From a virus (Duplodnaviria > Caudoviricetes), in the IMG/VR virus record IMGVR_UViG_3300021255_000109, positions 96,001-160,000 of that record: a stretch of 64,000 nt of DNA, one strand, 5' to 3'. The translations under genes were made by a program, and so were the position numbers. The notes beneath the pieces were generated by a model that worked only from the letters and a program-made list of their open reading frames with translations, had not been told where the DNA came from and searched no databases. Shown here piece after piece: positions 2,000 through 54,717 of the stretch (positions within the stretch are counted from its first letter, which is position 1; every line of letters starts with the position of its first letter).

Positions 2000-2013
2000 C
2001 GAACATTCGTTCG
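2000..2013. promoter_or_regulatory. LexA (Cheo/SOS) box CGAAC-ATTC-GTTCG
   Basis: Perfect arms of the Firmicutes LexA palindrome CGAAC-N4-GTTCG, just upstream of the -35 of an early promoter. Confidence 0.7.
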
Positions 2014-2040
2014 ATTTTGCCCGGGCGAGTTAGAGGAGAC

Positions 2041-2208
2041 TTACTCCTCATCCTCTGTTATGCCGTCAATAATAAATTCATCAAAGCTAAAGGACTTTGT
2101 AGAAACCTGCTTATTCTGCCAAGCTAAAAACTTTTCTTTCGCTTCTCTTGCATTTTTAGCAGTAATAGTACAGGTACCGAGATAATCAATCATAAATTTT
2201 TTAGCCAT
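2041..2208 (-). CDS. Hypothetical early protein (55 aa, not in ORF track)
   Basis: MAKKFMIDYLG...; AGGAGG RBS. Confidence 0.65.
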   Translation of the reverse strand: MAKKFMIDYLGTCTITAKNAREAKEKFLAWQNKQVSTKSFSFDEFIIDGITEDEE

Positions 2209-2219
2209 GTTACACCTCC

Positions 2220-2522
2220 TTAGCAGTCAAAGTCGTAAGCACCCATGTAGGGATTATAGCCGGTCTCATCGAAGTCATAGACATCGCAGTCCTCAGGCTC
2301 CTCGTCCTCATCATCATCCCCAAAGGTGGCATCCCAGCAATCGGGGCAAATACCACTGATAAGCATCTCACGCTCATCAGGAGAAAGATAAGGGAAAGCG
2401 TCCTGCGCATTGGCGCCATCATTCCAGTCCCAAAAATCTGACTCGTTTACAGCAACATCATGCACATGATGGCAGAAGGGGCAAATTGTTTGAATGATAT
2501 ACTCTTTCTTATTTTCTCTCAT
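2220..2522 (-). CDS. Zn-ribbon protein with acidic tail (100 aa)
   Basis: CPFC...CPDC; start at MRENKK with AAGGAG RBS. Confidence 0.7.
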   Translation of the reverse strand: MRENKKEYIIQTICPFCHHVHDVAVNESDFWDWNDGANAQDAFPYLSPDEREMLISGICPDCWDATFGDDDEDEEPEDCDVYDFDETGYNPYMGAYDFDC

Positions 2523-2689
2523 TGTAATTCTCCTTTTCTGTGGCTCTCTCTTGTTCCTTACATTATGTATTATAGCATGGTTACAAGAGTTTGTCAATAA
2601 GTTTTTGAAAAAATTATTTTAAAATTTGAGTTAGCCCGGACTAACTTGCCCGGGCACGGTTAGGGGAGACTAACTGTCTCCCCCTGGGT

Positions 2690-2836
2690 TTACAGATAGG
2701 CAAGGATAGCTTTGCGCGTCGCCCTGACCAAAGTCCGGTACATCCGGTAAGCATGAAACGATTCATCATCTGGACCATTGAAAGATTCTACCATCATTCT
2801 GTAATAATAGTCATACAGTTTCATTAAATCACTCAT
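2690..2836 (-). CDS. Hypothetical protein (48 aa, not in ORF track)
   Basis: MSDLMKLYDYY...; GAGG RBS; hairpin downstream. Confidence 0.55.
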   Translation of the reverse strand: MSDLMKLYDYYYRMMVESFNGPDDESFHAYRMYRTLVRATRKAILAYL

Positions 2837-2862
2837 ATTTTTTACCTCACCTTTTGATTTGA

Positions 2863-3207
2863 TTATTCGAACGGCAGTTCGCCGCAGGTAGCAAAACCAT
2901 TATATCTGGCAACCATGATTTCATCGTCTTTAATTTCCGGGGTGTAATGGTCAAACATTATCAGGCTGGCGCAATCGCCCACGCTCCAATCTTCCACGCC
3001 TTCAAGTTGCCACAGTTCATGGTTACTGTCTACAAAAGTAACCACATCATGAATGGTATCAACCTGATACACATACATTGTTTGCGGGTAATAGTTCGTG
3101 CGATAATGTTTCTTTACCAGTATTCCAGTAGTGAAAAATACTATACAACAGACAACAAACAGGAGACCAAGTACCGGGACGACGATTTCTGATTTTGCTC
3201 TTTTCAT
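2863..3207 (-). CDS. Membrane-anchored hypothetical protein (114 aa)
   Basis: N-terminal hydrophobic helix; RBS and promoter. Confidence 0.7.
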   Translation of the reverse strand: MKRAKSEIVVPVLGLLFVVCCIVFFTTGILVKKHYRTNYYPQTMYVYQVDTIHDVVTFVDSNHELWQLEGVEDWSVGDCASLIMFDHYTPEIKDDEIMVARYNGFATCGELPFE

Positions 3208-3283
3208 TTTTCTGTTCCTTTCTCTCTTCCTTTATCTTACATAAATATTTTACCAAATTTTTTACAAATTGTCAAGTGCTTTT

Positions 3284-3499
3284 TTAAAGTTTTTCGCAAA
3301 AAATACCATCAGTTCGTAAAATGAAATCGTCAAAGTCACCGTGCCTTGCTTCATCATAATACAAGTAAACAACTTCATCATTCCATTGCAACTTATTAAC
3401 TATTTGAGTTAATAAGTTGAAAGCTTTAATAGCTTTTTCTTTTCCCTCTACTGTATAATAAAGATTTTCACCAAACAGGTCTGCCCATAATTTGTACAT
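3284..3499 (-). CDS. Hypothetical early protein (71 aa)
   Basis: AAGGAG RBS and promoter. Confidence 0.65.
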   Translation of the reverse strand: MYKLWADLFGENLYYTVEGKEKAIKAFNLLTQIVNKLQWNDEVVYLYYDEARHGDFDDFILRTDGIFCEKL

Positions 3500-3656
3500 T
3501 ATTTTTACTCCTTTCTTTTGATAAGTCTATTATAATAGATAACAGATGATTTGTCAAGGGTTTTTAAAAAATAATTGTAAATCTTTTCTGCAAATTATCA
3601 TACAATTGGCCCGGGCGGTTAGTCTTAACTAACTGCGGTTAGTTGAGGCGGGGGGA

Positions 3657-4019
3657 TTACTCCCCCTTCCCCTTGCGGTGCTTTATCAGCTTGACCGTGT
3701 AGCTTTCACCCTGAAAAATGAAGTGCATTTCTGCCTCTGTCGTTAGGGGTTCAACGACCGCACCCAGACCTTCAAGCACTACCCGGTAGTCATTGATGAG
3801 ACGCTTTTTAGTTTCATCAACTTTGCGCTCTCGCTTGACATCTGTGCGCTTGCGTGTGCCAGTACCGCTCACAGCTTTTGCGGCTTTCTTCTGCTCAGGG
3901 GACAGCTCAAAGAGCTTTTCCCCTTTATCAATGGCTTCATCTTCCATGATAACCTGAATGGCTTCCTCACGGGTACACTGTAAAGACTTCATCAGCTTTG
4001 CAATTCTTTTTTCATCCAT
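3657..4019 (-). CDS. Hypothetical early protein (120 aa)
   Basis: GAGG RBS; promoter about 4046-4074. Confidence 0.75.
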   Translation of the reverse strand: MDEKRIAKLMKSLQCTREEAIQVIMEDEAIDKGEKLFELSPEQKKAAKAVSGTGTRKRTDVKRERKVDETKKRLINDYRVVLEGLGAVVEPLTTEAEMHFIFQGESYTVKLIKHRKGKGE

Positions 4020-4082
4020 GCTTCTGTACCTCTCTTTCTGTAATTATTATAGCACAGGTCGGCAGGCTTGTCAAGCATTTTT

Positions 4083-4280
4083 TTAATCATTTTCGAGAGT
4101 CGCTAAAACCTCGCCGGTGTCGCTGTCAGTAATAACAGCACAGGTGAAACCATACTCACCCATTGCCCAACGGGCTTTATTTACGCCATTATCTAATGAC
4201 CCAGCGCCGTATTCAATCCGGAACTCATCATCTAAAATAATAGTCATGCGAGTGGTATAATCATAAGTAATTTTCATCAT
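4083..4280 (-). CDS. Hypothetical early protein (65 aa)
   Basis: Start moved to MMKITYDY after an AAGGA RBS. Confidence 0.65.
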   Translation of the reverse strand: MMKITYDYTTRMTIILDDEFRIEYGAGSLDNGVNKARWAMGEYGFTCAVITDSDTGEVLATLEND

Positions 4281-4503
4281 GATTTTTATTCCTTTCTTTT
4301 GGGCTTGTTTGTTTCTTACATTATGAATTATAGCATAGGAGCAGAAAATTGTCAAGCCTTTTTTAAAAATAATTTGTAGAACTATTTGGTGAGTTGTCAG
4401 ACAATTCGCCCGGGCGGCGCTTTAGCGCACTAAAGCGCTAAAGCGGTCGCGCCCTTGAGAGGAGATCGCGGTTTTAAGGGGTCACCGCAAACCCTTGTTC
4501 TGG

Positions 4504-4851
4504 TCAAGCCAGCTTGAAGTAAGCCTTTCTCTTGACCATCTCGCGGACGATGGTTTCATCCTTGAGCATGGGAGTCAGCAGAGCCGACACACGCTGAGAA
4601 GTCGCACCGTTCAGAGCCGGGATAGCTTCTGCGATTTCGGAAATGGTTCTTGCCGTACCATCGGACAGCAGCGCCAGAATGTCGGTACGAATACCGCCGT
4701 TCTCAACCTGAGTTTTGGTAGGCTTGCGGTCGACAGAGTTCTTCTTCTCAATCTGCGCCTTGAGGGCGGTCAGACGCTCGACAGCTTCCGCATTGTCGGT
4801 GATGGAGTTGATAGCGATTTCAAGAGCAGTTGCGTAAGTCATGTTCTTCAT
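4504..4851 (-). CDS. Winged-helix DNA-binding protein, paralog 2 (115 aa)
   Basis: ILALLSDGTARTISEIAE...SQRVSALL...IVREMVKRKAYFKL fits an HTH plus beta-wing; start at MKNMTY. Confidence 0.75.
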   Translation of the reverse strand: MKNMTYATALEIAINSITDNAEAVERLTALKAQIEKKNSVDRKPTKTQVENGGIRTDILALLSDGTARTISEIAEAIPALNGATSQRVSALLTPMLKDETIVREMVKRKAYFKLA

Positions 4852-5052
4852 AATATTTGTTTCCTTTCTTTGTGAAGTGGTTTTCTTTTGTGCTTTTATT
4901 ATAGCACATTCAGAAGCGTTTGTCAAGGGGTTTTTTATTTTTTTATTTCTTTTGAAGCGATTCCATTTCCTCTCGCTCCCCTTGACATTATTAAGTATAG
5001 CACACTTGAAGCATTTTGTCAAGGGCTTTTTAAAACTTTTTTGAAAAAGTTT

Positions 5053-5235
5053 TTACTCAGTCATTGACTCGGTCAGCCCTTCAGCGACGCCTTCAGCGAA
5101 AGCCTGAACAACTTCTTTCTCAGTCAGTCCGAACGCATCACACAGTCCTTCAAAAGTAACCGAACCGTCATTTTCAATACCTAACTGTGCCAGAACTAAA
5201 GCAACAATAACTCTTTTAGCGCTTTCTCTTACCAT
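5053..5235 (-). CDS. Small hypothetical protein, possible HTH (60 aa)
   Basis: TFEGLCDAFGLTEKEV resembles an HTH; start at MVRES. Confidence 0.55.
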   Translation of the reverse strand: MVRESAKRVIVALVLAQLGIENDGSVTFEGLCDAFGLTEKEVVQAFAEGVAEGLTESMTE

Positions 5236-5402
5236 TTTAAGCACCTCTCTCTTTCTTTTGATAAGTCTATTATACAGGGTAAACTGCATTTTGTCAAGCG
5301 TTTTTTGAAAAAATTATTGTTAGACTTTTGCACGAATTATCTGACAATTTGCCCGGGCCCGGTTAGTCAAGACTAACTGCTTAGGTGAAAAGTTGGGGGC
5401 GG

Positions 5403-6107
5403 TTATACCGTCCCCATGATTTCCTTATGTTTCTGCTGTACCCTCATCCAACAGGCGGAATAGGGGCGAGTGTCCATCTTCTTATGCTGCGCAAAACATT
5501 TCAGCAATATTTCCGCTTCGATGGTCACATCCTCAAGCCCTCTGTGTTCTTCGATGAAGTCTACATTTTTAGTAATGTAGCGGTAGCAGCACTCAGCATT
5601 AGTAAGAATGTTGCCCTTTGTAGACACAAAGCCATTAGCAAGAGCAAACTTGATATAAGATGGACGGGAAAGTAAAACCTGGCAAGCCATATTCCAGATA
5701 CAACGGAACTCTGTATTTTCCGGGAAGAAAATGGAATACTTTTTTGTTACGAACTGCTGAACATTGTTCAGTGCGCGCTTGTCAAAGTTCATGTTGTAAG
5801 CGTAAACTGTGGTAGTTTTGAACGCTTCCATATCCGCTAAAATCTGCTTGCGGATAGTGGAGAGTCTGGCAAGTCTGCGCTTTCCGGTTCTCAGGTCGTC
5901 CGCATACTGCGGGAGTTTTTCCGCATAATAAGCGGTATTCATCATGTCCGGTTCATCACAGTAAATCTCAGCGACAACAAACGAACGTGAAGCGAGAACT
6001 TCGCCCTTGCGGTTCATAACCACATAGCCGCAATCATAGGGCAGAGGATAGTTCACAGAACCTGCGGTCTCAGTGTCGATTACAATAAAGTTTTCATTCT
6101 TTCTCAT
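5403..6107 (-). CDS. DEDDh 3'-5' exonuclease (DnaQ-like)
   Basis: ExoI IDTETAG, ExoII AYNMNFD, ExoIII HRGLED. Confidence 0.85.
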   Translation of the reverse strand: MRKNENFIVIDTETAGSVNYPLPYDCGYVVMNRKGEVLASRSFVVAEIYCDEPDMMNTAYYAEKLPQYADDLRTGKRRLARLSTIRKQILADMEAFKTTTVYAYNMNFDKRALNNVQQFVTKKYSIFFPENTEFRCIWNMACQVLLSRPSYIKFALANGFVSTKGNILTNAECCYRYITKNVDFIEEHRGLEDVTIEAEILLKCFAQHKKMDTRPYSACWMRVQQKHKEIMGTV

Positions 6108-6384
6108 TTGCGTTTTCCTCTCTCTCATTTGATGGCTTAATTATACCACCTTTTGGCTTGTTTGTCAAGGGCTTTTTTAAAATTCATTTGAATTTTTTTT
6201 TCAGGACGTTTCTGCTTCGCTCTTGCTTACATTGTCTATTATACTATTAGGGCGGTGTTTTGTCAAGTATTTTTTGTGAAAAGAATTGTTAGACTTTTTT
6301 GTAAATCGTCCGACAATTCGCCCGGGCCGGTTAGTCACAACTAACTGACAGGGCAGAGGGGTTTTCAACTAAAAAAATAGGGGC

Positions 6385-6828
6385 TTATTTCAGCCCCTTT
6401 AAGATTTCAATAATGTTGTTAACATCAAACGCTTTTCCGTTCCATTCTTTTCTATTGCGCTCTTCATCATCAAAGAGAACGTCTGTTTCATTGTGCCGGA
6501 AAGTGTCTTTACAAGTTCCGTATGAAACAATGTTGATTTTGTCGAAGGAAACACTTGCTAAATGAGTTGAAAGCCAAGCAAGTTTTGCAAGGGTCACAGC
6601 CTTGTCATATTCAGCAGTAGAGGTTTTCGACAGCCAAGAAATAATTTCGATTCGAAAACCTTTTCTTTGCAGATTATTCAGGACTCTTGCCAGTGCCTGA
6701 AGGTTTAACAGGGCTTTTGCGTTTGCATAGGGGAACGGGTCGCCGTTCCGCAGATAGTCAAGCCAGTTATCAACGCCGTACAGGTCGGCAATTGTTCCAT
6801 CCATGTCAAAGAAGATTGTAGTAGTCAT
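6385..6828 (-). CDS. HAD-family 5'(3')-deoxyribonucleotidase-like (NT5C)
   Basis: FFDMDGTIADL motif I; K..WL; LFDD motif IV. Confidence 0.8.
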   Translation of the reverse strand: MTTTIFFDMDGTIADLYGVDNWLDYLRNGDPFPYANAKALLNLQALARVLNNLQRKGFRIEIISWLSKTSTAEYDKAVTLAKLAWLSTHLASVSFDKINIVSYGTCKDTFRHNETDVLFDDEERNRKEWNGKAFDVNNIIEILKGLK

Positions 6829-7061
6829 TTCGTTTTCCTCTCTTTCCTTATCTCTGAATACATTATAGCAAATTATTTTTAATTTGTCAACTGTTTTTTT
6901 ACAAAAAATAAAAAAATTTTTGGGAATAATCGGACGGAATCAGGGCGGGAGTTAGGCATGGCTAACTGCGCCCGGGCGAGTTAGTGTCAACTAACTTTCG
7001 TCTGAGGATCTCGGGGCGAACAGTTGTTCTGTTCGCCCCGGAACTGGCAGAGGGAGAAGAG

Positions 7062-7412
7062 TCAAGCGATTTTGAAATACGCCTTTCTCTTGACCATCTC
7101 ACGGGTGATAGTCTCTTCCTTCAGCAGAGGGGTCAGCAGAGCGGACACTCTCTGAGAGGTGGCGTCATGCAGAGCCGGCACGCTCTCGCTGATTTCGGAA
7201 ATGGTGCGAGCAACACCGTCGGAAAGCAGGGCGAGAATCTGCTGGCGGATTTCGCCGTTTTCTACCTGAGTTTTGGTAGGCTTGCGGTCGACAGAGTTCT
7301 TCTTTTCGATGGACGCGCGCAGAGCGGTCAGTCTGTCGACTACTTCGCCCTCAGAACCGGTAAGTGCGTTGATAGCGATGTCAAGAGCCTGAACATAAGT
7401 CATTTTCGTCAT
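7062..7412 (-). CDS. Winged-helix DNA-binding protein, paralog 3 (116 aa)
   Basis: Shares long identical blocks with 4504-4851 (IEKKNSVDRKPTKTQVENG; ATSQRVSALLTP). Confidence 0.75.
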   Translation of the reverse strand: MTKMTYVQALDIAINALTGSEGEVVDRLTALRASIEKKNSVDRKPTKTQVENGEIRQQILALLSDGVARTISEISESVPALHDATSQRVSALLTPLLKEETITREMVKRKAYFKIA

Positions 7413-7720
7413 AATGTATTCCCTTTCTGGTTTGGTGGGTTTTCCTTCCCTTTGATGATTTTATTATAGCACATTTTGAAGTGTTTGTCAAGAGGTTTCT
7501 TTATTTTTTTTACTGACCTCACGGGAGTGCCTTTACAGAGGACTCTTTCCTCTTGACAAGTATAATATAGCACAGATCAGGTAAAAATGCAAGCACTTTT
7601 TGATTGAAATAATGCACAAAATGTTATGGTGGAAATGAATTTTTTTTGTGCAAAGTGCCGAAAGGCCCGGGCAAAATTTTCCTTCACCCTCTGCCCTATC
7701 CGGCAGAGGGTGGCTGGCAT

Positions 7721-7936
7721 TTATTTACTTGTCAAGTTGTAGCGGTCAGCAACCGGGTGGCGCAAACAGATGAACAGGGCTTTTAATGAAAAGCAAATTT
7801 TAACAATATCGACAATTTCCTGTCCTTCGTAGGCAACCAGTGAATGACAGCGCTTTCCCAGATTGCGAGTACCGCAGAGGTACTCATATGAGACCGCTTC
7901 ACTATCAATATCTCGTCTTGTAATTCTATACAGCAT
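7721..7936 (-). CDS. Hypothetical early protein (71 aa)
   Basis: GAGG RBS; terminator hairpin 7685-7714 downstream. Confidence 0.6.
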   Translation of the reverse strand: MLYRITRRDIDSEAVSYEYLCGTRNLGKRCHSLVAYEGQEIVDIVKICFSLKALFICLRHPVADRYNLTSK

Positions 7937-8117
7937 ATATATGTCCTCTCTTTTGTTTTTTCAGACAATGGGGAAGCTTCTGAAGCCCAGATAGTGGTTA
8001 TGCCAAAGCTGCCCGAACCCCTGCTTCGCTTCCTCTCTCTGTCTGTACCTATATTATATCACCGATCTGCGGGCTTGTCAAGCCCTTTTTTATTTTTTTG
8101 GTGGATACTTGCAAGCC

Positions 8118-8579
8118 TTAGTTCAGGCTTGCAAGCAGGGCTTCACTTGCAAAGGTCGCTTTATCGAACTTAATCTGATAAGCGATACCATCAACAGTAA
8201 GGTCGCCGTCCATATCGAAACGAACGTGGTCTTTTGTCCAGTCCTGACCGGCCATTTCAGTCAGCATTTTTTCGAAAATGTCGCCCTTATTGTACTTACT
8301 ATTGCGCACCTGAGTCAGAAAGAAATCTTCGGAGCAGAGCGCGCGGGCATTTTCCATAAGGAGCATTTTCTGTGCTGTGGTCGGATGGAACTTGAGAACC
8401 AGACCGCCGCCATTTTTGGAACTTGCCTTATCCAGTACGGCGATATAAGGCAGGATAGTCTCATCGGCTTCTGCCACATATACAACGTGCTTCAGCACGA
8501 AGCCAAACAGATACTTATGCGCATATGCGCGCGCGGTGTAGTCATTGACGAGTTTCTGAAGCATGATTTCGTTCTTCAT
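8118..8579 (-). CDS. Putative PD-(D/E)xK-fold nuclease (153 aa)
   Basis: KGDIFE...DGDL...YQIK pattern; start at MKNEIM. Confidence 0.5.
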   Translation of the reverse strand: MKNEIMLQKLVNDYTARAYAHKYLFGFVLKHVVYVAEADETILPYIAVLDKASSKNGGGLVLKFHPTTAQKMLLMENARALCSEDFFLTQVRNSKYNKGDIFEKMLTEMAGQDWTKDHVRFDMDGDLTVDGIAYQIKFDKATFASEALLASLN

Positions 8580-8784
8580 AGTAGTATCCCCTCTCTTGTA
8601 GGCTTGTCTTTCTCTCAACCTTACATGAAGGATTATACCACACGGGCAAGCAGAAATCTATTAGCAAAATGTACAAAATTCAACAACTTTTTTATGCACT
8701 TTGTATAGTTCGCTCTTGTGCAATTTGACGGTAAAAAATGCACAAAATCCGTATTCATTTATTATGCAAATTGCACAAGAGGTG

Positions 8785-9162
8785 AATAGTCTGATAATTT
8801 ATTGAATAATCTGACAATTCAGAAAATTCAGACAATTCAATAAATAGTCTGACAATTTAGAAAATTCAGATAATTCTGAATTGTCAGATAATAAATCAAA
8901 TTGTGTATACAATTCAGAATTGTCAGACAATTTGCGGGAATTTTGAAAGCTGTCAGAATTGCGCGACAATTCCAGATTTTTTTCCGAATTGTGTACACAA
9001 TTTGGCGGCCGACCGCCAACGGCGGCCACAATTGGCGAAATTGTCTGAATTGCGCGACAATTTCGCCAATTGTGCGTGAATTGTCTGACAATTCCGGGAA
9101 TTGTCAGACAATTCTGAATTGTCAGACAATTGCGCAAAAAATTGCGAATTGTCTGACAATTC
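8785..9162. repeat. Array of about 16-18 AATTGTC(A/T)GACAATT / AATTGTGTACACAATT palindromes (CodY-box-like)
   Basis: Tandem and overlapping 15-bp palindromes, bounded by a GC-rich hairpin at about 9170-9197. Confidence 0.85.
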
Positions 9163-9393
9163 AGCAGAACCGGCCGCCAGGCCCGGTGGCGGCCGGCCCA
9201 TATGAAAAGCCCTCGGGTCATACCGACCTCAGGGGCAACTTCTCAAAGAGGAACTAGAGCAGGCGCGCTCCGTGATGGTTTAAGTATAGCACATTCAATC
9301 CAAAAAGTCAAGCACTTTTTTATTTTTTTTGTGGGTATCTTGATTTTCTGGAGGTCATTCCTTCCTGACGATTTTATCTTAACATATTTCGGG

Positions 9394-9546
9394 CTATTTG
9401 TCAAGCCCTTTTTTCTTTTTTCTGACTTCTTTTATTTTGTCGATAATTGCAAACAAAATTATCATGACCGGCGGCTCAAAAATAACAAACAGAAGCAGAT
9501 AAACAAACGGATTATTATTTTCAAGTGCGCGTGCTATCGTAAACAT
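9394..9546 (-). CDS. Small membrane protein (50 aa; ends at TAG, with a TAA five codons later)
   Basis: MFTIARALENNNPFVYLLLF...; GAGG RBS. Confidence 0.5.
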   Translation of the reverse strand: MFTIARALENNNPFVYLLLFVIFEPPVMIILFAIIDKIKEVRKKKKGLDK

Positions 9547-9547
9547 C

Positions 9548-9709
9548 TTATTTATCCTCTCTTTCTTTTTCTCTTTCCAGTTTTTCGGATTCAAAATCCT
9601 CTTTACTGTAATATATCAGGGGCTGCCCGGTGCGGTATCTTTCTTCATCTTCTTGGAACATAATTTCCGCAAGTCGTTCAATTTTATTCATTTCTTCCCA
9701 TGCTTTCAT
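9548..9709 (-). CDS. Hypothetical acidic protein (53 aa, not in ORF track)
   Basis: MKAWEEMNKIERLA...; GGGAG RBS; promoter 9740-9768. Confidence 0.6.
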   Translation of the reverse strand: MKAWEEMNKIERLAEIMFQEDEERYRTGQPLIYYSKEDFESEKLEREKEREDK

Positions 9710-9764
9710 TTTGTTATCTCCCTTTCTCTTGATAGTTCTATTTTAACATACTCTCAGAAGCTTG

Positions 9765-9920
9765 TCAAGAGCTTTTTAAAAACTTGTATTTTTCTTTCCG
9801 GGTATAGCTTCCTTTCCCTTTGCGGTTTTGGATCTGTCCGCCTTTCTTCTTAAACTTGAGGTACTCCTGCAATTCCTCAGGAGTCATTTTAAACATCCGC
9901 CTTATTTTTGTATTTTTCAT
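9765..9920 (-). CDS. ArfA-like (alternative ribosome-rescue factor-like) small basic protein (51 aa, not in ORF track)
   Basis: MKNTKIRRMFKMTPEELQEYLKFKKKGGQIQNRKGKGSYTRKEKYKFLKSS contains the ArfA hallmark KGKGSYxRK; AAAGGAG RBS and own promoter 9951-9979. Confidence 0.6.
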   Translation of the reverse strand: MKNTKIRRMFKMTPEELQEYLKFKKKGGQIQNRKGKGSYTRKEKYKFLKSS

Positions 9921-10007
9921 TTGAAAAATCTCCTTTCCTCTGATGATTCTATCTTAGCACACTTTTGATCTGTTGTCAAGTGTTTTTTGATGGAAAGATT
10001 GAGTTTT

Positions 10008-10415
10008 TTATAACTCAATCTTTCCGCCTTTAACCTCAAGCCAAATCGCCTTATATCCGGCCTTCTCCCATTGTTTACAATTAGCTTTCTTATCATCGAC
10101 CAAAATCCCGGCCTCTCTGATATAGTCCACTTTATTGCCATGTCCTACGATTGCAATTATATTTTCAATCGGGATTTCAGGCAACATTTCAGCAAGCCAA
10201 TCAATTCTTGCTTGTTTAGTTATTTCGTTGGCTACTATTGTGTTTATGTAAACCTGTGCGCCGTGCGCTATCAGATTTTTGACTATCTGGACATTTTCCG
10301 TAAACGGCTTCAAATTTCTAATGAAGTTATAGGTTAAGGACTCTGCCCGGTTATCTTTATTGTATACGCTGTGGAAATCTGCGAGAACGCCGTCAACATC
10401 AAAGTAGTAAGTCAT
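10008..10415 (-). CDS. Second HAD-family 5'(3')-deoxyribonucleotidase-like protein
   Basis: YFDVDGVLADF...ILVDD...N...W; start at MTYYF. Confidence 0.8.
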   Translation of the reverse strand: MTYYFDVDGVLADFHSVYNKDNRAESLTYNFIRNLKPFTENVQIVKNLIAHGAQVYINTIVANEITKQARIDWLAEMLPEIPIENIIAIVGHGNKVDYIREAGILVDDKKANCKQWEKAGYKAIWLEVKGGKIEL

Positions 10416-10604
10416 TTTTTTTATCTCCCTTCTCTCATCTGACAAGTATAGTATATCAAACGCCCGGGCATTTGTCAATAGTTTTTTGAAAGAAAATTAA
10501 ATTCGCACAATTTGGCAAAAATTTGCCAATTGTATACACAATTTGAAAAACGGCCGAGGTCAATTGTCTGACAATTGACCCCCTTTCTTTTAATTGCGTG
10601 TCGA

Positions 10605-10802
10605 TTAGTAGAATTCTTCCTGCTCCTGTGCATAATAGAATCTTTCATCACACAGCGCCGGCATCCCGTTCCACAGCTTTTCTGGCTTCTCCTGATTGAT
10701 TCTGTTCGCATCTTGCTGGACTTTTGCCAGCGGCGCATTGCTTATATATGCCAGATAAGTTTCGCCAGTTTCAATTTCCTTATAGCACATCGTTCTAATC
10801 AT
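10605..10802 (-). CDS. Hypothetical early protein (65 aa)
   Basis: Start at MIRTMC after a GGGAG RBS; overlaps the upstream stop. Confidence 0.6.
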   Translation of the reverse strand: MIRTMCYKEIETGETYLAYISNAPLAKVQQDANRINQEKPEKLWNGMPALCDERFYYAQEQEEFY

Positions 10803-10993
10803 TTTAATTGTCTCCCTTCTCTGCAAATTCTTTCTTTGACCGTCCGGCCATTCTCAGCATTGTTTAATACAACATAAGCATGAGTATATTCAGCGCAAGC
10901 CCTATTAAATAGCTTTTCGGCTTCTTCTCTTGTTTCTACCTTGAAGCCATATCTCATGAAATTCACAGTAACATAGAACATTTTTTTGCCCAC
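10799..10993 (-). CDS. Hypothetical early protein
   Basis: AAAGGAG RBS; part of an operon. Confidence 0.6.
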   Translation of the reverse strand: MGKKMFYVTVNFMRYGFKVETREEAEKLFNRACAEYTHAYVVLNNAENGRTVKERICREGRQLK

Positions 10994-11001
10994 TCCTTTC
11001 T

Positions 11002-11265
11002 TTATAATGTGAAATCATCTATCGGCAGCTTCATAATTGTGATACCCTTATCTTCATCTATATAAGAGTATCCGAAGCTCTCTGCATCTCTCTCCTGCAC
11101 TTCACTCAGCACTTTTTCATAGTCAATATAATCATCGGTTTCATTATAGATTGCCTGCACCATGCGTGCCGCTTTTTCCGGAGTGCTTGCCAACCAGATA
11201 CCATCATCATCAAATCCATCATAGCGCACTACCCAAACCATCATCTTCGTATTAGCTTTCTTCAT
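11002..11265 (-). CDS. Hypothetical acidic protein (87 aa)
   Basis: AAGGAG RBS; promoter 11298-11326. Confidence 0.7.
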   Translation of the reverse strand: MKKANTKMMVWVVRYDGFDDDGIWLASTPEKAARMVQAIYNETDDYIDYEKVLSEVQERDAESFGYSYIDEDKGITIMKLPIDDFTL

Positions 11266-11360
11266 TGTTTTTTTCTCCTTTTCTCTGTTGTGCTTTTATT
11301 CTATCATATTTGCCCGGGCTTGTCAAGCCCTTTTTCAATTTTTTTTATAGGTGAGGGGAT

Positions 11361-11564
11361 TTAATCAATCCCCTCGCAGGTAACCTCTACGCAAAGGAAG
11401 ATAAAGGTCAGCTTCCAAAGCATCCGGGTTGTGAGGTCATAAACGAGGATTGCGCTTTCTGCGACTTCCTTGATTTCCAGACCTAACATCATATCCAGAG
11501 CGTCAAGCGCTTCATTCTCAGACATACCGCAGAAGATATCTTCCCAATCAGTTCTTTCAATCAT
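11361..11564 (-). CDS. Hypothetical early protein (67 aa)
   Basis: Start at MIERTDW; GAGGAG RBS; terminator hairpin about 11353-11375. Confidence 0.6.
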   Translation of the reverse strand: MIERTDWEDIFCGMSENEALDALDMMLGLEIKEVAESAILVYDLTTRMLWKLTFIFLCVEVTCEGID

Positions 11565-11658
11565 TTTCTTATCTCCTCTCTTGTATTGTGCCTTCATTAT
11601 AGCACCGATCTGTTGATTTGTCAAGTTTTTTTTAAAAATTTTTTTCGGTCGGGTTTCT

Positions 11659-11778
11659 TCAGCTCTCGCTGAAGAAAACCCTTTTGACTTCTGCGACTTC
11701 TTCCGGCTCTAACAGAGCCTTCAGAATGTCGTCGATAGATGCACCATATCTCAAAGCCTCATTTACACTAAAATCCAT
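11659..11778 (-). CDS. Hypothetical peptide (39 aa)
   Basis: MDFSVNEALRYG...; GAGGAG RBS; promoter. Confidence 0.45.
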   Translation of the reverse strand: MDFSVNEALRYGASIDDILKALLEPEEVAEVKRVFFSES

Positions 11779-11904
11779 TTTCTTATCTCCTCTCTGTTGG
11801 GGCTTCTCTCTTACCCCTTACACCTGTATCTTATCACCTTTGCCCGGGCTTGTCAAGCCCTTTTTCAATTTTTTTAAAAATTTTTTTGGCCGTTTGGGCT
11901 TGCA

Positions 11905-12099
11905 TTAGCAAGCCCTTACGATTTTCTTGAGCGCCACAAGCTTGAGATTCCAGTCGCAAGCCGTGAACACAAGACCGTATTTTGCAGCGTCCTGTCTGAT
12001 TTCGTCGGCGCGTCTTGTGGTTTCGTCGTCGCCAAAATCAAAACCGTTACTGTTCAGTCTGTAGAACTCATTAGCATTTTCAGAAGTAAGAATCATCAT
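11905..12099 (-). CDS. Hypothetical early protein (64 aa)
   Basis: GAGGAG RBS; promoter 12147-12175. Confidence 0.65.
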   Translation of the reverse strand: MMILTSENANEFYRLNSNGFDFGDDETTRRADEIRQDAAKYGLVFTACDWNLKLVALKKIVRAC

Positions 12100-12355
12100 T
12101 TTTTTAATCTCCTCTCTTTTGAGCTTCTCTCTTGCTCTGTGCCTTTATCTTATCACACTTGCCCGGGCTTGTCAAGCACTTTTTCAAATTTTTTTAAAAA
12201 ATTTTTTTGCCCTGTTTTTGGGCTTGCCTGATTGCCTTGCATCATCATAATAACACAAGCCTTTTTTGCTGTCAACAAAAATTTGCTTTTTTGCCTGTCA
12301 AAATATTGTACGGTTTTTGCATGTTTTTTGTGCATTTTTACTAACCTGTTTTTTC

Positions 12356-12457
12356 ACGAAAACGTTTTTGCTCATTTGAGCTTTACGAAAACGTTTTCGT
12401 TGATTTATCACAGCGAAAACGTTTTCGTTGACCATGTTTTTACGAAAACGTTTTCGC
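12356..12457. repeat. 4 x RCGAAAACGTTTTCGY palindrome, period 28-29 bp (LacI-family operator-like)
   Basis: Copies at 12356, 12385 (perfect 16-bp palindrome), 12413 and 12442. Confidence 0.85.
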
Positions 12458-12483
12458 TACAACAGCGAATTGATGAAAGTTGC

Positions 12484-12574
12484 TTGTTAAAATTTTAACA
12501 ATCTTTGCCCTGGAATCCGTCTAAACTTTTAAACGTTTAAGTTTGTAAACAATCGCTTGTTAAATTTTTAACAA
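12484..12574. promoter_or_regulatory. Two Rex-type operators TTGTTAA-N4-TTAACAA
   Basis: Perfect copies at 12484-12501 and 12557-12574; match the clostridial Rex consensus. Confidence 0.7.
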
Positions 12575-12589
12575 TCTCGGACAGAGGGT

Positions 12590-12722
12590 GAACGTATGTT
12601 CGGGCAGAATACCAGTTCGGTTAGTTAGTCTTAACTAACTGCCCGCACATTTGTTCGGTGAATGTATGTTCGGTTAGTTAGTCTGAACTAACCGCACACA
12701 TGTTCGCCCAAACGTTAGTTCG
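12590..12722. promoter_or_regulatory. Six LexA/SOS-box-like sites (GAAC-N4-GTTCG and variants)
   Basis: 12590 GAACGTATGTTC (perfect), 12607, 12645, 12660, 12694, 12710; further copies at 13453 and 13940. Confidence 0.65.
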
Positions 12723-13031
12723 GTTAGTTAGTCTAACCTAAGTTAGTTAGTCGTAACTAACTCACCGCTCCAATCGTCCGATTTATAGTTAGTTTAGATT
12801 AACTGAGTTAGTTAGTCGTAACTAACTCGCCCGTGCAAGAATTATTTTTAAATAATTGCACAATTTGATGAATTGTCTGACAATTTCCTAATTTTTTACC
12901 AATTGTGTACACAATTCGAGCAACGGCCGAGGCCGGTTGTCAGACAATTTAATCAATTGTGTTGCAATTGATTTACTGGATGAACTGGCGCTTTACTAAA
13001 AAAATTTTTTCATTTTTTTTGAAAAAAAGTA

Positions 13032-13060
13032 TTGACAAGACCGTTTTTATCGTTTATAAT
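13032..13060 (+). promoter_or_regulatory. Consensus sigma-A promoter
   Basis: TTGACA(13032)-17-TATAAT(13055) with upstream A-tract. Confidence 0.85.
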
Positions 13061-13093
13061 AGAGCCAAGAAAACAAGAGAGGAGATCAAAAAA

Positions 13094-13393
13094 ATGACAA
13101 GTCAGCACTACACCAACGACAGAGAGAGAAGAGAAGCCTTAATTCAGATGATCGGATACGGAGAGATCATCAAAACCGTGGAAATCGACAGAGGACATAG
13201 AAACGGCCCTGAGATCCACAAGGTCAGCACCACCGGAATCGTAACAATTTATAATAAGCGTTCCGGCGTAATGATAACCAAACTGATTGCCCGCCCGAAC
13301 CAAATTAGAAGATACTTCGAAGGCGGAAACGCTCCGGCTGAACTCTTAAACATTGCAAGAGATCACCAGCGTCTCGGATACAATGAAGCGTGA
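13094..13393 (+). CDS. Hypothetical protein (99 aa) embedded in the operator array
   Basis: GAGGAG RBS; start at MTSQHY; own promoter and terminator. Confidence 0.8.
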   Translation: MTSQHYTNDRERREALIQMIGYGEIIKTVEIDRGHRNGPEIHKVSTTGIVTIYNKRSGVMITKLIARPNQIRRYFEGGNAPAELLNIARDHQRLGYNEA

Positions 13394-13415
13394 AAACGCT
13401 TCATTGTATTTTTTT
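13380..13415 (+). terminator. Intrinsic terminator
   Basis: CAATGAAGCG-TGAAAA-CGCTTCATTG followed by a T-tract. Confidence 0.75.
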
Positions 13416-14280
13416 AGATAAAAGTAGTTAGTTAGTCTTAACTAACCAGCGCACACATCTGTTCGGTTAGTTAGTCTTAACTAACTCTTGTTCGTTTATT
13501 CTTTTAAACAGATTAGTTATAACTAACTGAGTTAGTTAGTCTTAACTAACCTAACTACATTCTTAGGTTTGTAGTTTAGTTAGTTAGTCATAACTAACTC
13601 TTGTGTTAGCTATTCCTAACTTAGTTAGTTTAAACTAACTAAGTTAGTTAGTCATAACTAATTCATTGCTTCTGTAATCTGTTTAGTTAGTTAGTCTTAA
13701 CTAACTCTTTTGGTCTAATCCTTGGTTAGTCCTAACTAACTTGATTAGTTAGTCTTAACTAACTCTCTTGTTTAACGATTAACCTTAGTTAGTTAGTCTT
13801 AACTAACTGTTTTGTTTAACGATTAACCTTAGTTAGTTAGTTGTAACTAACTCATTGCTTCTGTACTTTGTTCAGTGGTTAGTTAGTCGTAACTAACTCT
13901 TTGCTTGTGCGCTCTGTTGGTTAGTTAGCACTAACTAACGACCATTTGTTCGGTTAGTCATGACCAACTACGTCTCGTCTTGGCTACAGTTAGCCATGAC
14001 TAACTACAGTTAGTTAGTCTTAACTAACTCCATGCTCCAATCGTCTAATTTAATAAAAATGGTTAGTTTAGACTAACTCAGTTAGTTAGTCGTAACTAAC
14101 TCCGCTGTTCTGTGTTTAGATAAATAAAAATACTTGAGTTAGTTAGTCGTAACTAACTCAGTTAGTCATGACTAACTCAAACTACTATTTTTGTAGAATA
14201 GCAAGAATTACAAATAACTACAATCTACGTTTTTAGTTATTTAGTCAATTCATCAAATCAACTAAATAACTACAAAATTA

Positions 14281-14605
14281 GATTTGTCTGACAATTCGCA
14301 CAATTGTCAGACAAAACTACAACCTTAGATTTGTCTGACAATTCATTAAATTATCTGACAATTCTGAAAACTCCAATCGTCAGATAATTCACTAAATTGT
14401 CAGAAAATTCAGAAAATTCACGCAATTCAAAAGATTCAGAATTGTCAGACAATTTGGCGAGTTATCTGACAATTCTAATTGTGTAGAATTGTCAGACAAT
14501 TCACTGAATTGTCTGACAATTAATTGTGTACACAATTTAGGCAATTTTCTGACAATTCTACAAGCGTAGAATTGTCAGAAAATTTTCCGAATTGTCTGAC
14601 AATTG
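14281..14605. repeat. About 14 AATTGTC(A/T)GACAATT CodY-box-like palindromes
   Basis: Includes variants AATTTTCTGACAATT and AATTGTCAGAAAATT; closed by a GC hairpin at 14613-14639; a smaller cluster lies at about 12870-12950. Confidence 0.85.
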
Positions 14606-14644
14606 CGAAACTCGGCGCGCCTCGCCCGTGGGCGCGCCGACGCA

Positions 14645-15175
14645 GATGCTTTATTACCTTTGGTGTTCCTTTATATTCTGTCCTTATGTTATAATATGTT
14701 ATATTGTTATGTATGTTATGTTGTGTTATGTGTTTGTTCTTATTATTGTTATGTTTGTGTTCATTGAGTGTTGCTTTATTGCTGTTTATGTGTTTGTGTG
14801 TGTTGTGCCTTTGCTCTCTTTGTGTGTTTGTTGTGTCTCTGTGCTTGTGCTGATGTCCTTGCTGCCTGCATGCGCCCTTCGCGCACTCATTAATTGTGTG
14901 CTCTTGCTGTTATTATACTGTATTATACTGATGATGTCCTACATTCGTTTGATCTATTGTCATACTATTGGTCTATTGCTATTTGTGTCTACTGTATGTT
15001 TGCTAGTGCAATAGTACAACAGTGTGTATGTGTTTATCTCTTGTGCTTATTGTGCTGTGTGAATGTGTCTCTTGTGCGCTTGACCGTATTAGTATACTGC
15101 ATGTGTGATGCTATTATCTTTTCTACTCTTGTATTGTTATTGTGTATGTGTTTGCATTGTTAGTATTTGCTCTTG
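14645..15175. other. Non-coding, strongly T/G-skewed low-complexity tract
   Basis: TGTG/TGTT-rich + strand; overlapping ORFs are C/V/L-rich artefacts without an RBS. Confidence 0.7.
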
Positions 15176-15472
15176 TTTTAATAGACTCTATTAAATAAAA
15201 AGAAATGTATTCAACTAAAATAAGAGTTGAATACATTTCTATATTTATTTCACTTTATTTTGTTGTCAACAACTTTGTTGTATTGCTTTCTTCTATATTT
15301 CTTTTTCTGGGGATTTGTAGACGGTCTGTTGCAGGTACCTCGCGCGATCGCGCCAATAGACGTCTATAGGATTGTCAGATTTTTTCCAGATAGAAAACAA
15401 AAGAAAGCTAAGTGGGGGTGGGTTTTCGGGCAAAAAATTTTTTCGAACATGTGTTTTGATTTGGCCTGGTCA

Positions 15473-15590
15473 CAACTCTTTCAAAATGAATTTTCAATTT
15501 CAAGACACGAGCAACTCTTTCAAAACCAATTTTTAATTTCAAGACACGAACAACTCTTCCTAAATCGTTTTTTAAATTCAAGAAACGAAA
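15473..15590. repeat. 3 x 39-bp tandem direct repeat (CAACTCTT...TTCAAGA(C/A)ACGA)
   Basis: Units start at 15473, 15512 and 15551. Confidence 0.85.
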
Positions 15591-16909: not shown

Positions 16910-17989
16910 ATGGTAAAATTAGATTATACTTTAGAATCTCCAGAGGAACGATTAGCATTAGTCGAAAAGATTCTTGAGGAAAACCCCGGACCAAATAATT
17001 CCTATTTAGAAATCTTGGCTGACTATCTGGTTCTTTGTATGGAGAAAAAAGAGAAAAAAGAGCGTAAAATTCTTACAGAGAATCGCATGGCAACAATCAA
17101 CAAAAGAGAAACATCATTTGAAGGGCTAGTTGCTCAATTTGAAAATGGTGAAGATGGCATATATAATTTAATAACAGATAACAAGAAAAATCAAATATTT
17201 TAGCCTAAGATTTCAATAACAAAAAAAGATTTAGAAGAAATTCCTTATTTATTATAGATTAGAGAAGCGATTGCGTTTTGGGAGGAAAAATTAAAGACAG
17301 CCTCAGGACGTAATGCTTTCATCATTAAATCAACAATTATTGATTTGCGGAAAGACCAATATATTGTAAAAGAAGCTTTTCGACAACCAGTAGTATTAAA
17401 AACAATTACTAGGACTCGTTCTTATATTCCTTTTGATGAAAGTATTACATTCGATAAAGATGGCTTTTGCGTGCCGCACGGCGTCTCATTCCTTGACCCA
17501 AATGTTTGTTCTGCGGTTTTGTGTAATTATTCACGTCTAAAAGAGGATTGTTGGGGTAATTTTGAAAAAGATACTTGGTACTTTATGGAAGACTTTGATG
17601 CGCTTTGCGGCAAAGCTCTTGCGGATTACCCTATGTACGAACGCATTGTCTAGCTCAAGATCGACGGTAAACAGAACATCGAGATCCAAGAAACTTTAAT
17701 TGATGAATTTGGAATTAAACATAGTTTAGAATACATTTCTAGCCTTTGGCGCAAAAAAATCCCAAGTCTTATTGCTTCTGCTGCAGAAGATGAGTATCTC
17801 GATTGGTATTATTTAGAAGTAGAAAAAGGTAAATATAAGCGTTGTAGTAGATGCGGTCAAATCAAACTTGCCCATAATAAATATTTTTCAAAGAATAAAA
17901 CATCAAAGGATGGCTTTTACAGTATTTGTAAATGCTGCCGCAATAAGAAAAAAGTCCCAGTTATGATTGCCGTGGACAAAAAAAGCTAA
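16910..17989 (+). CDS. Putative regulator with sigma-region-4-like HTH and C-terminal Zn finger (359 aa, 3 TAG=Gln)
   Basis: Fragments 16910 and 17345 are in frame across TAG; ends CSRC...CKCC then TAA. Confidence 0.7.
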
Positions 17990-35108: not shown

Positions 35109-35155
35109 TTAAAAACATTTATCTAACTTATTTTTTATATAGGTTAGGAGTAATC

Positions 35156-35192
35156 GGGAGTAGAGATTATCTCTACTCCCTTTTATTTTTTA
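35156..35192 (+). terminator. Intrinsic terminator
   Basis: GGGAGTAGAG-ATTAT-CTCTACTCCC plus T-tract. Confidence 0.8.
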
Positions 35193-35234
35193 TTTTGCAA
35201 AATAAAAAATTTTGGAGAGAAAGGAGCAATTATA

Positions 35235-47042: not shown

Positions 47043-47115
47043 TTGGTCAATTTATGATAAAGTAAGTATTCCAGTTTTTAAATTGTATAGATAATGAGAG
47101 AAAGGAGACAGTTAC

Positions 47116-53100: not shown

Positions 53101-54717
53101 AATGCTAATATTATCGCCTATAAGTTTCATTTATATGCGTTTAATAACACTCAGCGCTATACGGGTTCATATGTAAAATTAAGTAGTGAAGGCACAACAA
53201 ATAATCCATTTTTCCAAGTACATTTTAAAGATGTCGGAGATGGTACTGACCAGAATTTTATTCCTAAAGATTTGAATTTGGTTATGCTTACTTAGAATCA
53301 ATTTCTTATTCAGTCTTAGGATTTTAGATTCTCAGCAACTAATTTAGCAGCGTGCTCAGGCATTCGTATGAATCTTGCGAATGGTCAATTTTTAGGTTAT
53401 AATTTTGGCTTTTCTGCATATGATAACGGTAGCGGTAATAATGGACGTTATATGGGATCACATGTTATTATAAATAGTAGCGGTAGTCCATATATTAGAG
53501 TACATTTTACTGATTATGGAGCAGGCAATAATCCTACGACAACATCTGGTTTAACGCCAATTAGAAATTTAGATATTGTTAATATTACAAAAGATAATTT
53601 TATAATACAATCTCATAATTGGAACACTACAAATGGAACTGGCTTAAAATTTGATTTAACTAATGGTTAGCTTTTAGGTTATAATTTCCAATTATAGGCA
53701 AGGCGCACTAGTAATCCAGCAGGCACTGTTACTATTAGTTCTGCTGATAGCACTTATCCAATTAAAGTAACAAATGGGTCAGATAAAACATTTGCAGTTA
53801 AATGGGATGGTTCATTAGAAGCCAATGCCGCAAGTATCACAGGAGCTATTACTGCTACATCAGGTACTTTTACAAATGTTAATATTCAAAGTGGTACTAT
53901 TGCTGGATGGCGTATTAACGGCAACAGAATCGATGCAAGTAATGGCACAATTTATTTAGACAGTAGTACAGGAACTATAAGTGGTGCAAAAGTTAATGGT
54001 GCTACAATTAGTGGCGGCACTATGAGTATTACTGGTTCTGGAGAAGGATCTGGTAGTTTTGGTGTTTCAAATAGTGGCGTTTTAAGCGCTACTGGAGCTA
54101 ATGTTACTGGAACAATTAATGCGAATCAAGGCACCTTTAATAATGTAGATATACAAAGTGGTACTATTGCAGGATGGTAGATCAATAGCACTACATTAAG
54201 TAAGGGCGATGTAATTTTAAATAGCTCTACTGGACAAATTTCTGGTGCAGCTATTGTTGGTGGTACTATTAGTGGTACAACTGTATCTGCTGAAAGTCTT
54301 AGATTTACTCTTTGGAATGGAGCTACTAGTGAGCTAAAATAGTTCGGTATTTATTCAATACCGAATTTTAAATGGAAAACGACAGTAGGCGGTTCAACTG
54401 TGTTCCGGCCTACAGGTTCAATATCAGTAAGTGTAACTCCTGGATGGAGTGTTATTGCTGGTTATGGTGCTATCGCAGTTAGAGATAGTTTACCAAACGG
54501 TAATGTTATTGGATATATTAATACTCAAGATATTATATCTTCAATTACATTAGGAGCAAGTGGTTCTGCTACTTTTACTGGAGATTAGATTACGTTATCT
54601 ACTACACGTGAGGCTGTTGGTGATAGATGGCAAATAGCTGGTTTAGTATATGTAGGTGATATTTCTGGTGGATCACAAGAAACATCAGTTTTATAGACTC
54701 AAAGCGTATTTGGGTAA
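47116..54717 (+). CDS. Large tail tip/central fibre protein (about 2,533 aa, TAG=Gln)
   Basis: Nine fragments in one frame; internal beta-repeats; G/T/S-rich beta-helical C-terminus. Confidence 0.75.

Follow-up and report, generated by a model that had tools for sequence, protein, structure and literature searches.

What is a 2.3-kb array of palindromic boxes, with a single small gene among them, doing in the genome of a large gut phage? We addressed this question for the IMG/VR virus record IMGVR_UViG_3300021255_000109 (180,778 bp). The stretch studied comprises its bases 96,001–160,000; these 64,000 nucleotides are referred to as the window, and all positions are window coordinates unless stated otherwise, with negative values for the part of the genome to the left of it. 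The array (12,340–14,640) is nearly gene-free and contains about 55–60 boxes of six kinds, here designated A to F, together with one gene for a protein of 99 residues. Its position is, by most of the evidence presented below, the inner edge of an early host-takeover region. We favor a reading in which the array would act in trans as a DNA sink that draws host repressors off their chromosomal operators from the start of infection. We assign this reading a probability of roughly 40%.

An original prediction, made from the sequence without database searches, had described ordered blocks of different palindromes with about 55 sites in total and one small gene. These blocks are present in the order described (Table 1). 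In total, the array comprises 4 A, 2 B, about 6 C-like, 29 D, 15 E and 2 F boxes. The D boxes share the core GTTAG-N6-CTAAC (24 exact, 5 with one mismatch; about 28 had been predicted) and mostly have the form of the 20-mer GTTAGTTAGTCNTAACTAAC. In the window, the D core matches 31 times compared to 0.03 matches expected from shuffled sequences. The E boxes correspond to AATTGTCWGACAATT, allowing for up to two mismatches, with 29 matches in the window (0.43 expected), and the F boxes to AATTGTGTACACAATT. Six to eight GAAC-N4-GTTCG-like sites had also been proposed. We found about six, only two of which have both halves reasonably intact: a near-perfect TGAACGTATGTTCG at 12589 and a site with two mismatches at 12659. 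The remaining four or so are degenerate (CGCAC/GTTCG). The boxes of D block 2 are uniformly oriented with one exception. Those of the E block are mostly arranged as pairs 20 bp apart in units of ~47 bp and include one perfect overlapping 24-mer (14395–14418). The rightmost 1.2 kb of the array, consisting of these two blocks, lies behind the terminator of the embedded gene and contains no predicted strong promoter.

Table 1. Features of the array and of its surroundings (window coordinates).
Feature	Position	Strand	Remarks
Outermost leftward early promoter	12247–12275	-	TTGACA-17-TATTAT, TG-extended; array starts 65 nt upstream
A block	12356–12457		4 copies of ACGAAAACGTTTTCGT; LacI-family-type, central CG palindrome, spacing 28–29 bp
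B block	12484–12574		2 perfect TTGTTAA-N4-TTAACAA (12484, 12557) on either side of the 12-bp palindrome TTAAACGTTTAA
C-like boxes	12589–12722		interleaved with the first D boxes
D block 1	12620–12826	+	6 DtxR-family-type boxes, extended 20-mer form
E and F boxes	12871–12971		E at 12871–12949; 60–160 nt upstream of the promoter of the embedded gene
Promoter of embedded gene	13032–13060	+	perfect TTGACA-17-TATAAT, sigma-A/sigma-70 type
Embedded gene P0001	13094–13393	+	99 aa; sole credible gene inside the array
Intrinsic terminator	13376–13411	+	closes the embedded gene
D block 2	13427–14176	+	23 DtxR-family-type boxes, mostly full 20-mer; spacing 19–75 bp, 44-bp tandem duplications
E block	14282–14604		13 CodY-like boxes and 1 F box
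GC-rich inverted repeat (hairpin)	14607–14640		ends the array; read from sequence
T/G-rich non-coding stretch	14641–15200	+	0.56 kb, strand-asymmetric, between array and first rightward genes
Early-promoter modules	2000–12175	-	[C/D/E box]-GCCCGGGC-[C/D/E box]-UP element-promoter
Second, smaller array	8640–9170		10 E, 3 F, GC-rich hairpins; upstream of the promoter of gene 8118–8579 (-)
NT5C/HAD 5'-deoxyribonucleotidase paralogues (two)	10008–10478, 6385–6828	-	early block
Giant frame	35154–47006	+	3,950 codons, TAG read as sense
Giant frame	47098–54717	+	2,539 codons, TAG read as sense

To identify the most frequent box, we searched for the exact D 20-mer in one genome per species of 185,579 prokaryote species. 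It was present in 25 bacterial stretches, with about 4–14 expected by chance according to our estimate. In at least 14 of the 25, the box is located between the -10 element and the ribosome-binding site of a metal-homeostasis gene, namely a ZIP transporter (8 loci, confirmed by Pfam for 3), feoA (3), a gene for an HMA-domain protein (2) or one for a Shr-like haem-binding protein (1). Several of the remaining matches are phage-like contigs binned into metagenome-assembled genomes. In two small Firmicutes genomes, two D cores flank the promoter of a feoA-feoA pair, directly downstream of the gene of a 121-residue DtxR-family protein that carries both domains of this family (PF01325 and PF02742). 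Each of the five tested genomes with D operators (5/5) contains one orthologue of this protein. The core GTTAGT-N4-ACTAAC was found in 35 of 121 sampled genomes of the same class, with 1–7 sites per genome that often form close pairs, and at about twice the frequency of a reversed-pattern control.

Since the exact 20-mer occurs in metal-uptake promoters and D cores co-occur with a DtxR-family gene, D is, judged by these matches, a genuine operator by which bacteria control a small metal regulon, and its putative binder is most likely a short DtxR/MntR-family repressor. This is in line with the original prediction, which had noted the resemblance of the GTTAG/CTAAC box to DtxR/MntR-type sites. 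The half-sites of the classical 19-bp DtxR/IdeR iron box are 1 bp apart, whereas those of D are separated by 6 bp and do not match that consensus. Because of this different spacing, the D operator appears to belong to another subfamily. Spacing also ruled out a classical DtxR, XylR, FapR, TnrA, AdcR or Fur box for both D and E. No prior assignment of the D motif was found in the literature searched. In bacteria the box overlaps the transcription start, unlike its upstream placement in phages. The D regulon of uncultured Firmicutes, with ZIP, feoA-feoA-feoB, HMA and Shr-like haem protein genes and the linked gene of the 121-residue protein, was seen at L091:1108-2058 and in L088, L068, L063, L072, L060, L078 and L074.

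The identity of the other boxes is supported to different degrees. B is identical to the clostridial Rex consensus, an 18-bp TTGTTAA-N4-TTAACAA sequence (PMC4600107) that is used in other clostridial studies too, and is a predicted Rex operator of the clostridial type. C corresponds to the Firmicutes LexA (Cheo) box; a DNA affinity purification sequencing (DAP-seq) study of C. thermocellum reported the same LexA dyad as in B. subtilis. For A, one clear genomic case argues for a LacI-family-type operator: in the Clostridia genome G145, the promoter of a LacI-family regulator gene carries the 14-mer core at +1, and the adjacent gene is preceded by a second copy. Overall, the A core was not enriched (4 of 151 genomes). 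E differs from the 15-nt CodY consensus AATTTTCWGAAAATT at two symmetric positions (G5/C11). CodY sites are built up from overlapping 24-mers with an offset of 9 bp (PMC10415144), and 19 such overlapping 24-mers occur among the E boxes compared to 0.02 expected; relatives of the phage carry near-consensus CodY-like forms of E. A role of E as a bacterial operator was not supported, because the exact box was found in 6 of 301 Clostridia genomes, which is about chance level, mostly inside genes and without promoter context. E is hence an unproven candidate for a CodY-like box. The assignment of the blocks to operators of host regulators, as originally proposed, thus agrees with the bacterial matches largely for D, B, C and A, and in the case of D it now stands on much firmer ground; E is only CodY-like and lacks an operator context.

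Six-frame searches of the whole phage yielded no Rex, CodY, DtxR, LexA or LacI DNA-binding domain above threshold. Two generic winged-helix (wHTH) proteins were the only hits. These results indicate that most boxes of the array are predicted operators of host repressors, carried by a phage without the cognate repressor genes. The embedded gene product P0001 has no match in Pfam or PHROG, its family consists only of viral hypothetical proteins (Atlas), and a single-sequence AlphaFold model (pLDDT 47) was too poor for a structure search. P0001 was ruled out as the array-binding protein, because it is not conserved beside the arrays of relatives.

Contrary to the impression that the boxes are a feature of the array alone, D, E, C and F boxes are also found at early promoters, and a second E/F array is present (Table 1). 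The whole genome contains 34 D cores, 34 E boxes (up to two mismatches) and 18 copies of the GC-box GCCCGGGC, all of them between -4,150 and 14,610, which corresponds to ~11% of the 181-kb genome. C boxes (CGAAC-N4-GTTCG, up to one mismatch) occur 15 times in the genome, 14 times in the early region, with perfect copies in promoter modules. All 18 near-exact D 20-mers belong to the array; promoter-proximal D boxes are weaker and have variable centres. Twelve of the GCCCGGGC copies lie in the window (2019–12161), the others at -4111 to -496. Thirteen are directly flanked by C, D or E boxes, with a -35 hexamer 30–55 nt (in one case up to ~80 nt) further downstream. The four promoters closest to the array carry a copy within their spacers. 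Modules of this kind were observed at 15 of 37 strong early promoters, and some boxes are placed between a terminator and the next promoter. With respect to 674 distinct strong promoters of the phage loci compared below, the box centres peak at -80 to -120, with essentially none between -60 and 0. The gene behind the second array (P0002, 153 residues) has related genes in 12 related loci, and by eye its product looked like a PD-(D/E)XK nuclease rather than a regulator. GCCCGGGC was ruled out as a parS or Noc site: the genome contains no parS, and the flanks are unlike those of a Noc site. GCCCGGGC and the GC palindromes of relatives resemble restriction-type sites.

Equivalent arrays, anticipated by the original prediction for related phages, are indeed present: relatives and other large phages carry D, Rex or DnaA arrays. 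In 13 contigs with a relative of the sigma-like gene at 16910–17986 (51–70% identity), a non-coding gap of 0.5–0.9 kb is found within 10 kb upstream of that gene. The gap region of L010, L014 and L019 contains varying mixtures of the same box types; L014 and L035 combine eight D boxes with six TTGTGAA-type Rex boxes, and in L010 Rex boxes of the TTGTTAA type occur together with 11-bp iterons. The exact D 20-mer occurs in 30 IMG/VR stretches, and tandem D boxes occur in at least 120. Dense D arrays were found in L043 (~28 boxes, partly with a period of 20 bp), L026 (12), L032 (30) and L023 (18). Four perfect DnaA boxes adjoin the D arrays at L043:4850-4915 and L065:3640-3700. The GC palindrome beside the constant D varies, being CTGGCCGGCCAG in L023 and CGCCGGCG in L043 and L046; L123 has CCAGGCGCC.

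In 45 viral contigs, a scan detected two perfect Rex boxes of the clostridial type within 15–45 bp. Among the 43 new Rex loci, 25 have at least five Rex-like boxes. Relatives contain 5–31 Rex boxes, some of the TTGTGAA type. Examples are ten boxes with an exact period of 24 bp (L119:920-1150), 11 boxes in 300 bp (L149:2110-2450) and, over the whole contig L123, 31 Rex and nine LexA boxes in promoter modules built on the same plan. Another phage Rex array is located at L116:7440-7900, one of the arrays of 10–31 Rex operators in other IMG/VR contigs. A possible Rex-controlled switch, consisting of just two perfect Rex boxes at a distance of 17 bp, is common to about eight contigs of 47–55 kb.

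Based on these comparisons we propose the following mechanism for the array. The host repressors concerned are expected to bind DNA in their "replete, unstressed" forms and would be available when infection starts. Upon entry of the early region, and more so upon replication of the genome, they would partition onto phage DNA. For the DtxR-type regulator, the bacterial genomes examined have ~1–7 candidate sites compared to 34 per phage copy, and a single phage genome could already draw it off the feo, ZIP and haem-uptake promoters. The remaining box types would in addition partly derepress the SOS, redox, carbon and amino-acid regulons. The weaker boxes upstream of the early promoters, which avoid the core promoter, would enlarge the sink while leaving the phage genes unrepressed.

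That the array is a promoter-poor, non-coding cluster of predicted consensus-quality operators for DtxR/MntR, LexA, Rex, LacI-family and probably CodY regulators is largely established by the sequence comparisons. We favor the sink because the best copies of the sites are those of the array, because much of the array has no promoter to regulate, because the sites avoid positions at which they would repress phage genes, and because the DtxR-type sites of one phage copy exceed the chromosomal ones several-fold. The earlier inference that the DNA of the array is itself the effector appears plausible, and among the three options then considered (decoy sponge, protein-binding ratchet for the leading DNA end, shield against nucleases) the decoy sponge fits best. 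The ratchet and the shield depend on the putative position at a first-injected genome end that the original prediction had assumed. The 107-bp "direct terminal repeat" of the record (genome positions 1–107 and 180672–180778) is the overlap of a circular or concatemeric assembly and no physical end, since it lies inside an open frame of ~186 codons that runs across the junction.

Several points weigh against the sink. The LexA and CodY regulons are large, and 15–34 sites per phage copy would count only after replication. Two Rex sites, as in the present phage, would be a negligible sink. A pure sponge would have no need for boxes grouped around GCCCGGGC in fixed modules, some 80–120 nt upstream of early promoters, and this pattern points to an additional or alternative role in cis. 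For E, no use as a bacterial operator was found, and its binder could be a phage protein. Finally, no precedent for a phage DNA sponge or operator decoy was found in the literature searched.

The sink, control in cis, control of injection, a barrier or origin and binding by phage proteins are not mutually exclusive. Control in cis is to be considered because the same boxes sit upstream of many early promoters, which the original prediction had missed. Holo-repressors bound ~80–120 nt upstream would then act as a host-state sensor or enhancer and tune the early sigma-A promoters to an undamaged host replete in metals, energy and nutrients. The proportion of early promoters with a module, the clear preference of the box centres for this distance and the recurrence of the module architecture, with different boxes and GC motifs, in further phages all argue for such a function. 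Moreover, activation from upstream sites is known for MntR, CodY and CcpA of B. subtilis (mneP/mneS, ackA). Modules are absent, however, from more than half of the early promoters. For the array itself, the corresponding role would be that of an extended control region of the divergent promoters at 12275 (minus strand) and 13032 (plus strand), or of a threshold-setting buffer. This does not account for 1.2 kb of D and E boxes behind a terminator and distant from strong promoters, and 10–28 back-to-back boxes, as in L119 and L043, are far beyond what a promoter needs. We regard the sensor as doubtful, and the proposed role of the array in cis as equally so, while taking both more seriously than the readings that follow. 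Binding of the boxes, at least of E, F and GCCCGGGC, by regulators of the phage, such as a small winged-helix protein or an orphan early shut-off protein, is suggested by the two encoded wHTH proteins, by the fact that E and F were not seen as bacterial operators, by the GCCCGGGC copies in the spacers of the four promoters nearest the array, and by the GC palindromes, which vary between phages while D stays constant, as expected of a phage-specific binder. The array would in this case serve a phage protein as a timing reservoir, and its boxes would mimic host operators. Exact matches of D, B, C and A to bacterial operators speak against it, as do the missing phage homologues of the matching regulator families and the fact that most early proteins have no detectable DNA-binding domain. 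Both phage binders and a reservoir for them thus seem unlikely to us.

The two other alternatives concern the array as a physical element. In T5, the iss is an untranslated region of 1.2–1.7 kb that borders the pre-early genes on their inner side and is rich in palindromes and repeats, with eight DnaA boxes; the genes adjoining it are transcribed away from it (Davison, bioRxiv 10.1101/866236). By analogy, the ~17-kb early region might enter first, and an array coated with host proteins might halt or anchor the transfer until early proteins are made; the ratchet of the original prediction is the converse form of this idea. The untranslated T5 repeats likewise carry host-protein sites and border a block that contains dmp, the early region of the present phage makes up ~9–10% of the genome and encodes two dmp-like 5'-deoxyribonucleotidases and nucleases, and two related contigs have four DnaA boxes beside their D arrays. 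Such a DnaA-box cluster was, however, not found in the present phage, boxes at individual promoters are left unexplained, and the mechanism in T5 is itself unproven, so that we consider this control of injection improbable, if marginally less so than binding by phage proteins. Lowest in our estimate ranks a protein-DNA barrier or replication element, in which the coated array would block forks, read-through or nucleases at the boundary between early and late genes or would be part of an origin. The cumulative GC-skew minimum and the gene-strand switch at ~16–17 kb, just right of the array, the boxes between terminators and promoters and the DnaA boxes adjoining arrays in relatives are consistent with it, and repressor-bound operator arrays are known to stall replisomes in E. 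coli. Yet the skew changes together with the coding strand and by itself does not mark an origin, and the genes beside the array include no initiator or partition gene. The idea of a nuclease shield is weakened by the ability of RecBCD-type enzymes to evict bound proteins.

Among known systems, the T5 iss is the nearest analogue of the array. Both are kilobase-scale non-coding regions of palindromes and repeats that border a takeover block with a 5'-deoxyribonucleotidase, both contain sites for host DNA-binding proteins (DnaA boxes in T5), and both are conserved as a feature across relatives while the flanking genes vary. The 2.3-kb array with the following 0.56 kb of non-coding DNA beside an early region with two NT5C-type nucleotidases fits this type. 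In contrast to T5, most boxes of the array can be assigned to named host repressor families and form long homotypic arrays, and the predicted host is a Firmicute. The 181 kb contain three perfect DnaA boxes, none of them near the array, unlike the ordered DnaA boxes of T5. The T5-type region is placed in a long terminal repeat, ~8% in from the leading end, and goes with a transfer of the DNA in two steps.

Titration of a protein by DNA sites is known from E. coli. Clusters of high-affinity sites lower the free DNA-binding protein in the case of datA (DnaA) and in the Fur titration assay (FURTA), in which multicopy operators derepress a metal regulon. They resemble the proposed sink in that the clusters titrate a protein and regulate no adjacent promoter. 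datA, however, is a chromosomal locus for a single protein, and FURTA is an artefact of the laboratory, whereas the phage array would serve four or five regulators. Single operators of host repressors occur on phages as well, for example those for DtxR at corynephage tox, the LexA boxes of temperate phages and the Spo0A boxes of phi29. These are also genuine host-regulator operators on phage DNA, and they make phage genes respond to the state of the host. There, one to few sites overlap a promoter; here, tens of sites avoid the core promoters and many have no promoter nearby. Many copies of one short site, spread or clustered in a mobile genome, are likewise found as the stoperators of mycobacteriophage L5 (roadblocks), P1 incA (a sink) and F sopC. 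In these cases the element encodes the protein that binds its sites, whereas the best-supported putative binders of the present boxes are host proteins. No Rep/ParB-type domain was found in the flanking or embedded genes, which argues against an iteron, centromere or origin, and the repeats match host operators.

We found no described example of a phage element of this kind in the literature searched. As a tentative generalization, which we consider possible but short of probable, large gut and rumen phages of Firmicutes may use non-coding operator arrays as a multi-regulator takeover sponge that needs no phage protein and has a repertoire tuned to the host lineage. Its scope would comprise DtxR-type, Rex, LexA, CodY and LacI-type regulators, and DnaA in some phages, with derepression of metal uptake, SOS, redox and nutrient regulons; we hold this part with the same reserve. 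If the sink is real, it would be a protein-free viral reprogramming of several host regulons at once, and "non-coding" kilobases in large phage genomes could be functional effectors. Whatever the mechanism, the box content of an array should read out the host regulators, and hence the host lineage, of a metagenomic phage. The D box would be a previously unassigned operator of a small DtxR-family regulon (feoA, ZIP, HMA, haem uptake) in uncultured Firmicutes. The array also offers a testable molecular identity for T5-iss-like repeat regions, the function of which has been a question for decades.

The surroundings of the array largely identify the phage, on sequence evidence, as a 181-kb TAG-recoded siphovirus of Firmicutes. 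Plus-strand genes right of ~15.2 kb (to 64000) are open only with TAG as a sense codon, whereas the minus-strand early genes left of 12.3 kb use the standard code. The portal protein is 36% identical to that of phAss-1, and portals of Enterococcus, Bacillus and Clostridium phages are more distant. Phages of the phAss-1 group are described as siphovirus-like and TAG-recoded; they have giant tape-measure genes, and their predicted hosts are Clostridia (PMC10607447). A megablast search with 5 kb against INPHARED did not return a near-identical phage record. In the early block, each minus-strand gene has a consensus TTGACA-N17-TATAAT promoter, an A/T-rich UP element and a strong Shine-Dalgarno sequence; 37 strong promoters lie between -5,000 and 12,400, compared to 1–3 per 5 kb elsewhere. 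The block encodes DEDDh-type exonucleases, many orphan proteins and the two NT5C-type 5'-deoxyribonucleotidases, and looks like a host-takeover set.

No RNA families were detected by Rfam in the region from 11.5 to 17.5 kb. The sequence of the T/G-rich stretch behind the array is not conserved; a T-rich, low-complexity analogue is present at L014:7990-8208. Further to the right, a conserved non-coding block (15414–15553) contains two direct repeats of ~39 bp, with an A6T6 tract in front. It is 72% identical to L010:8577-8712, is present in L017 too and has no Rfam match. This block is a candidate for a packaging site, an origin or a phage-specific promoter.

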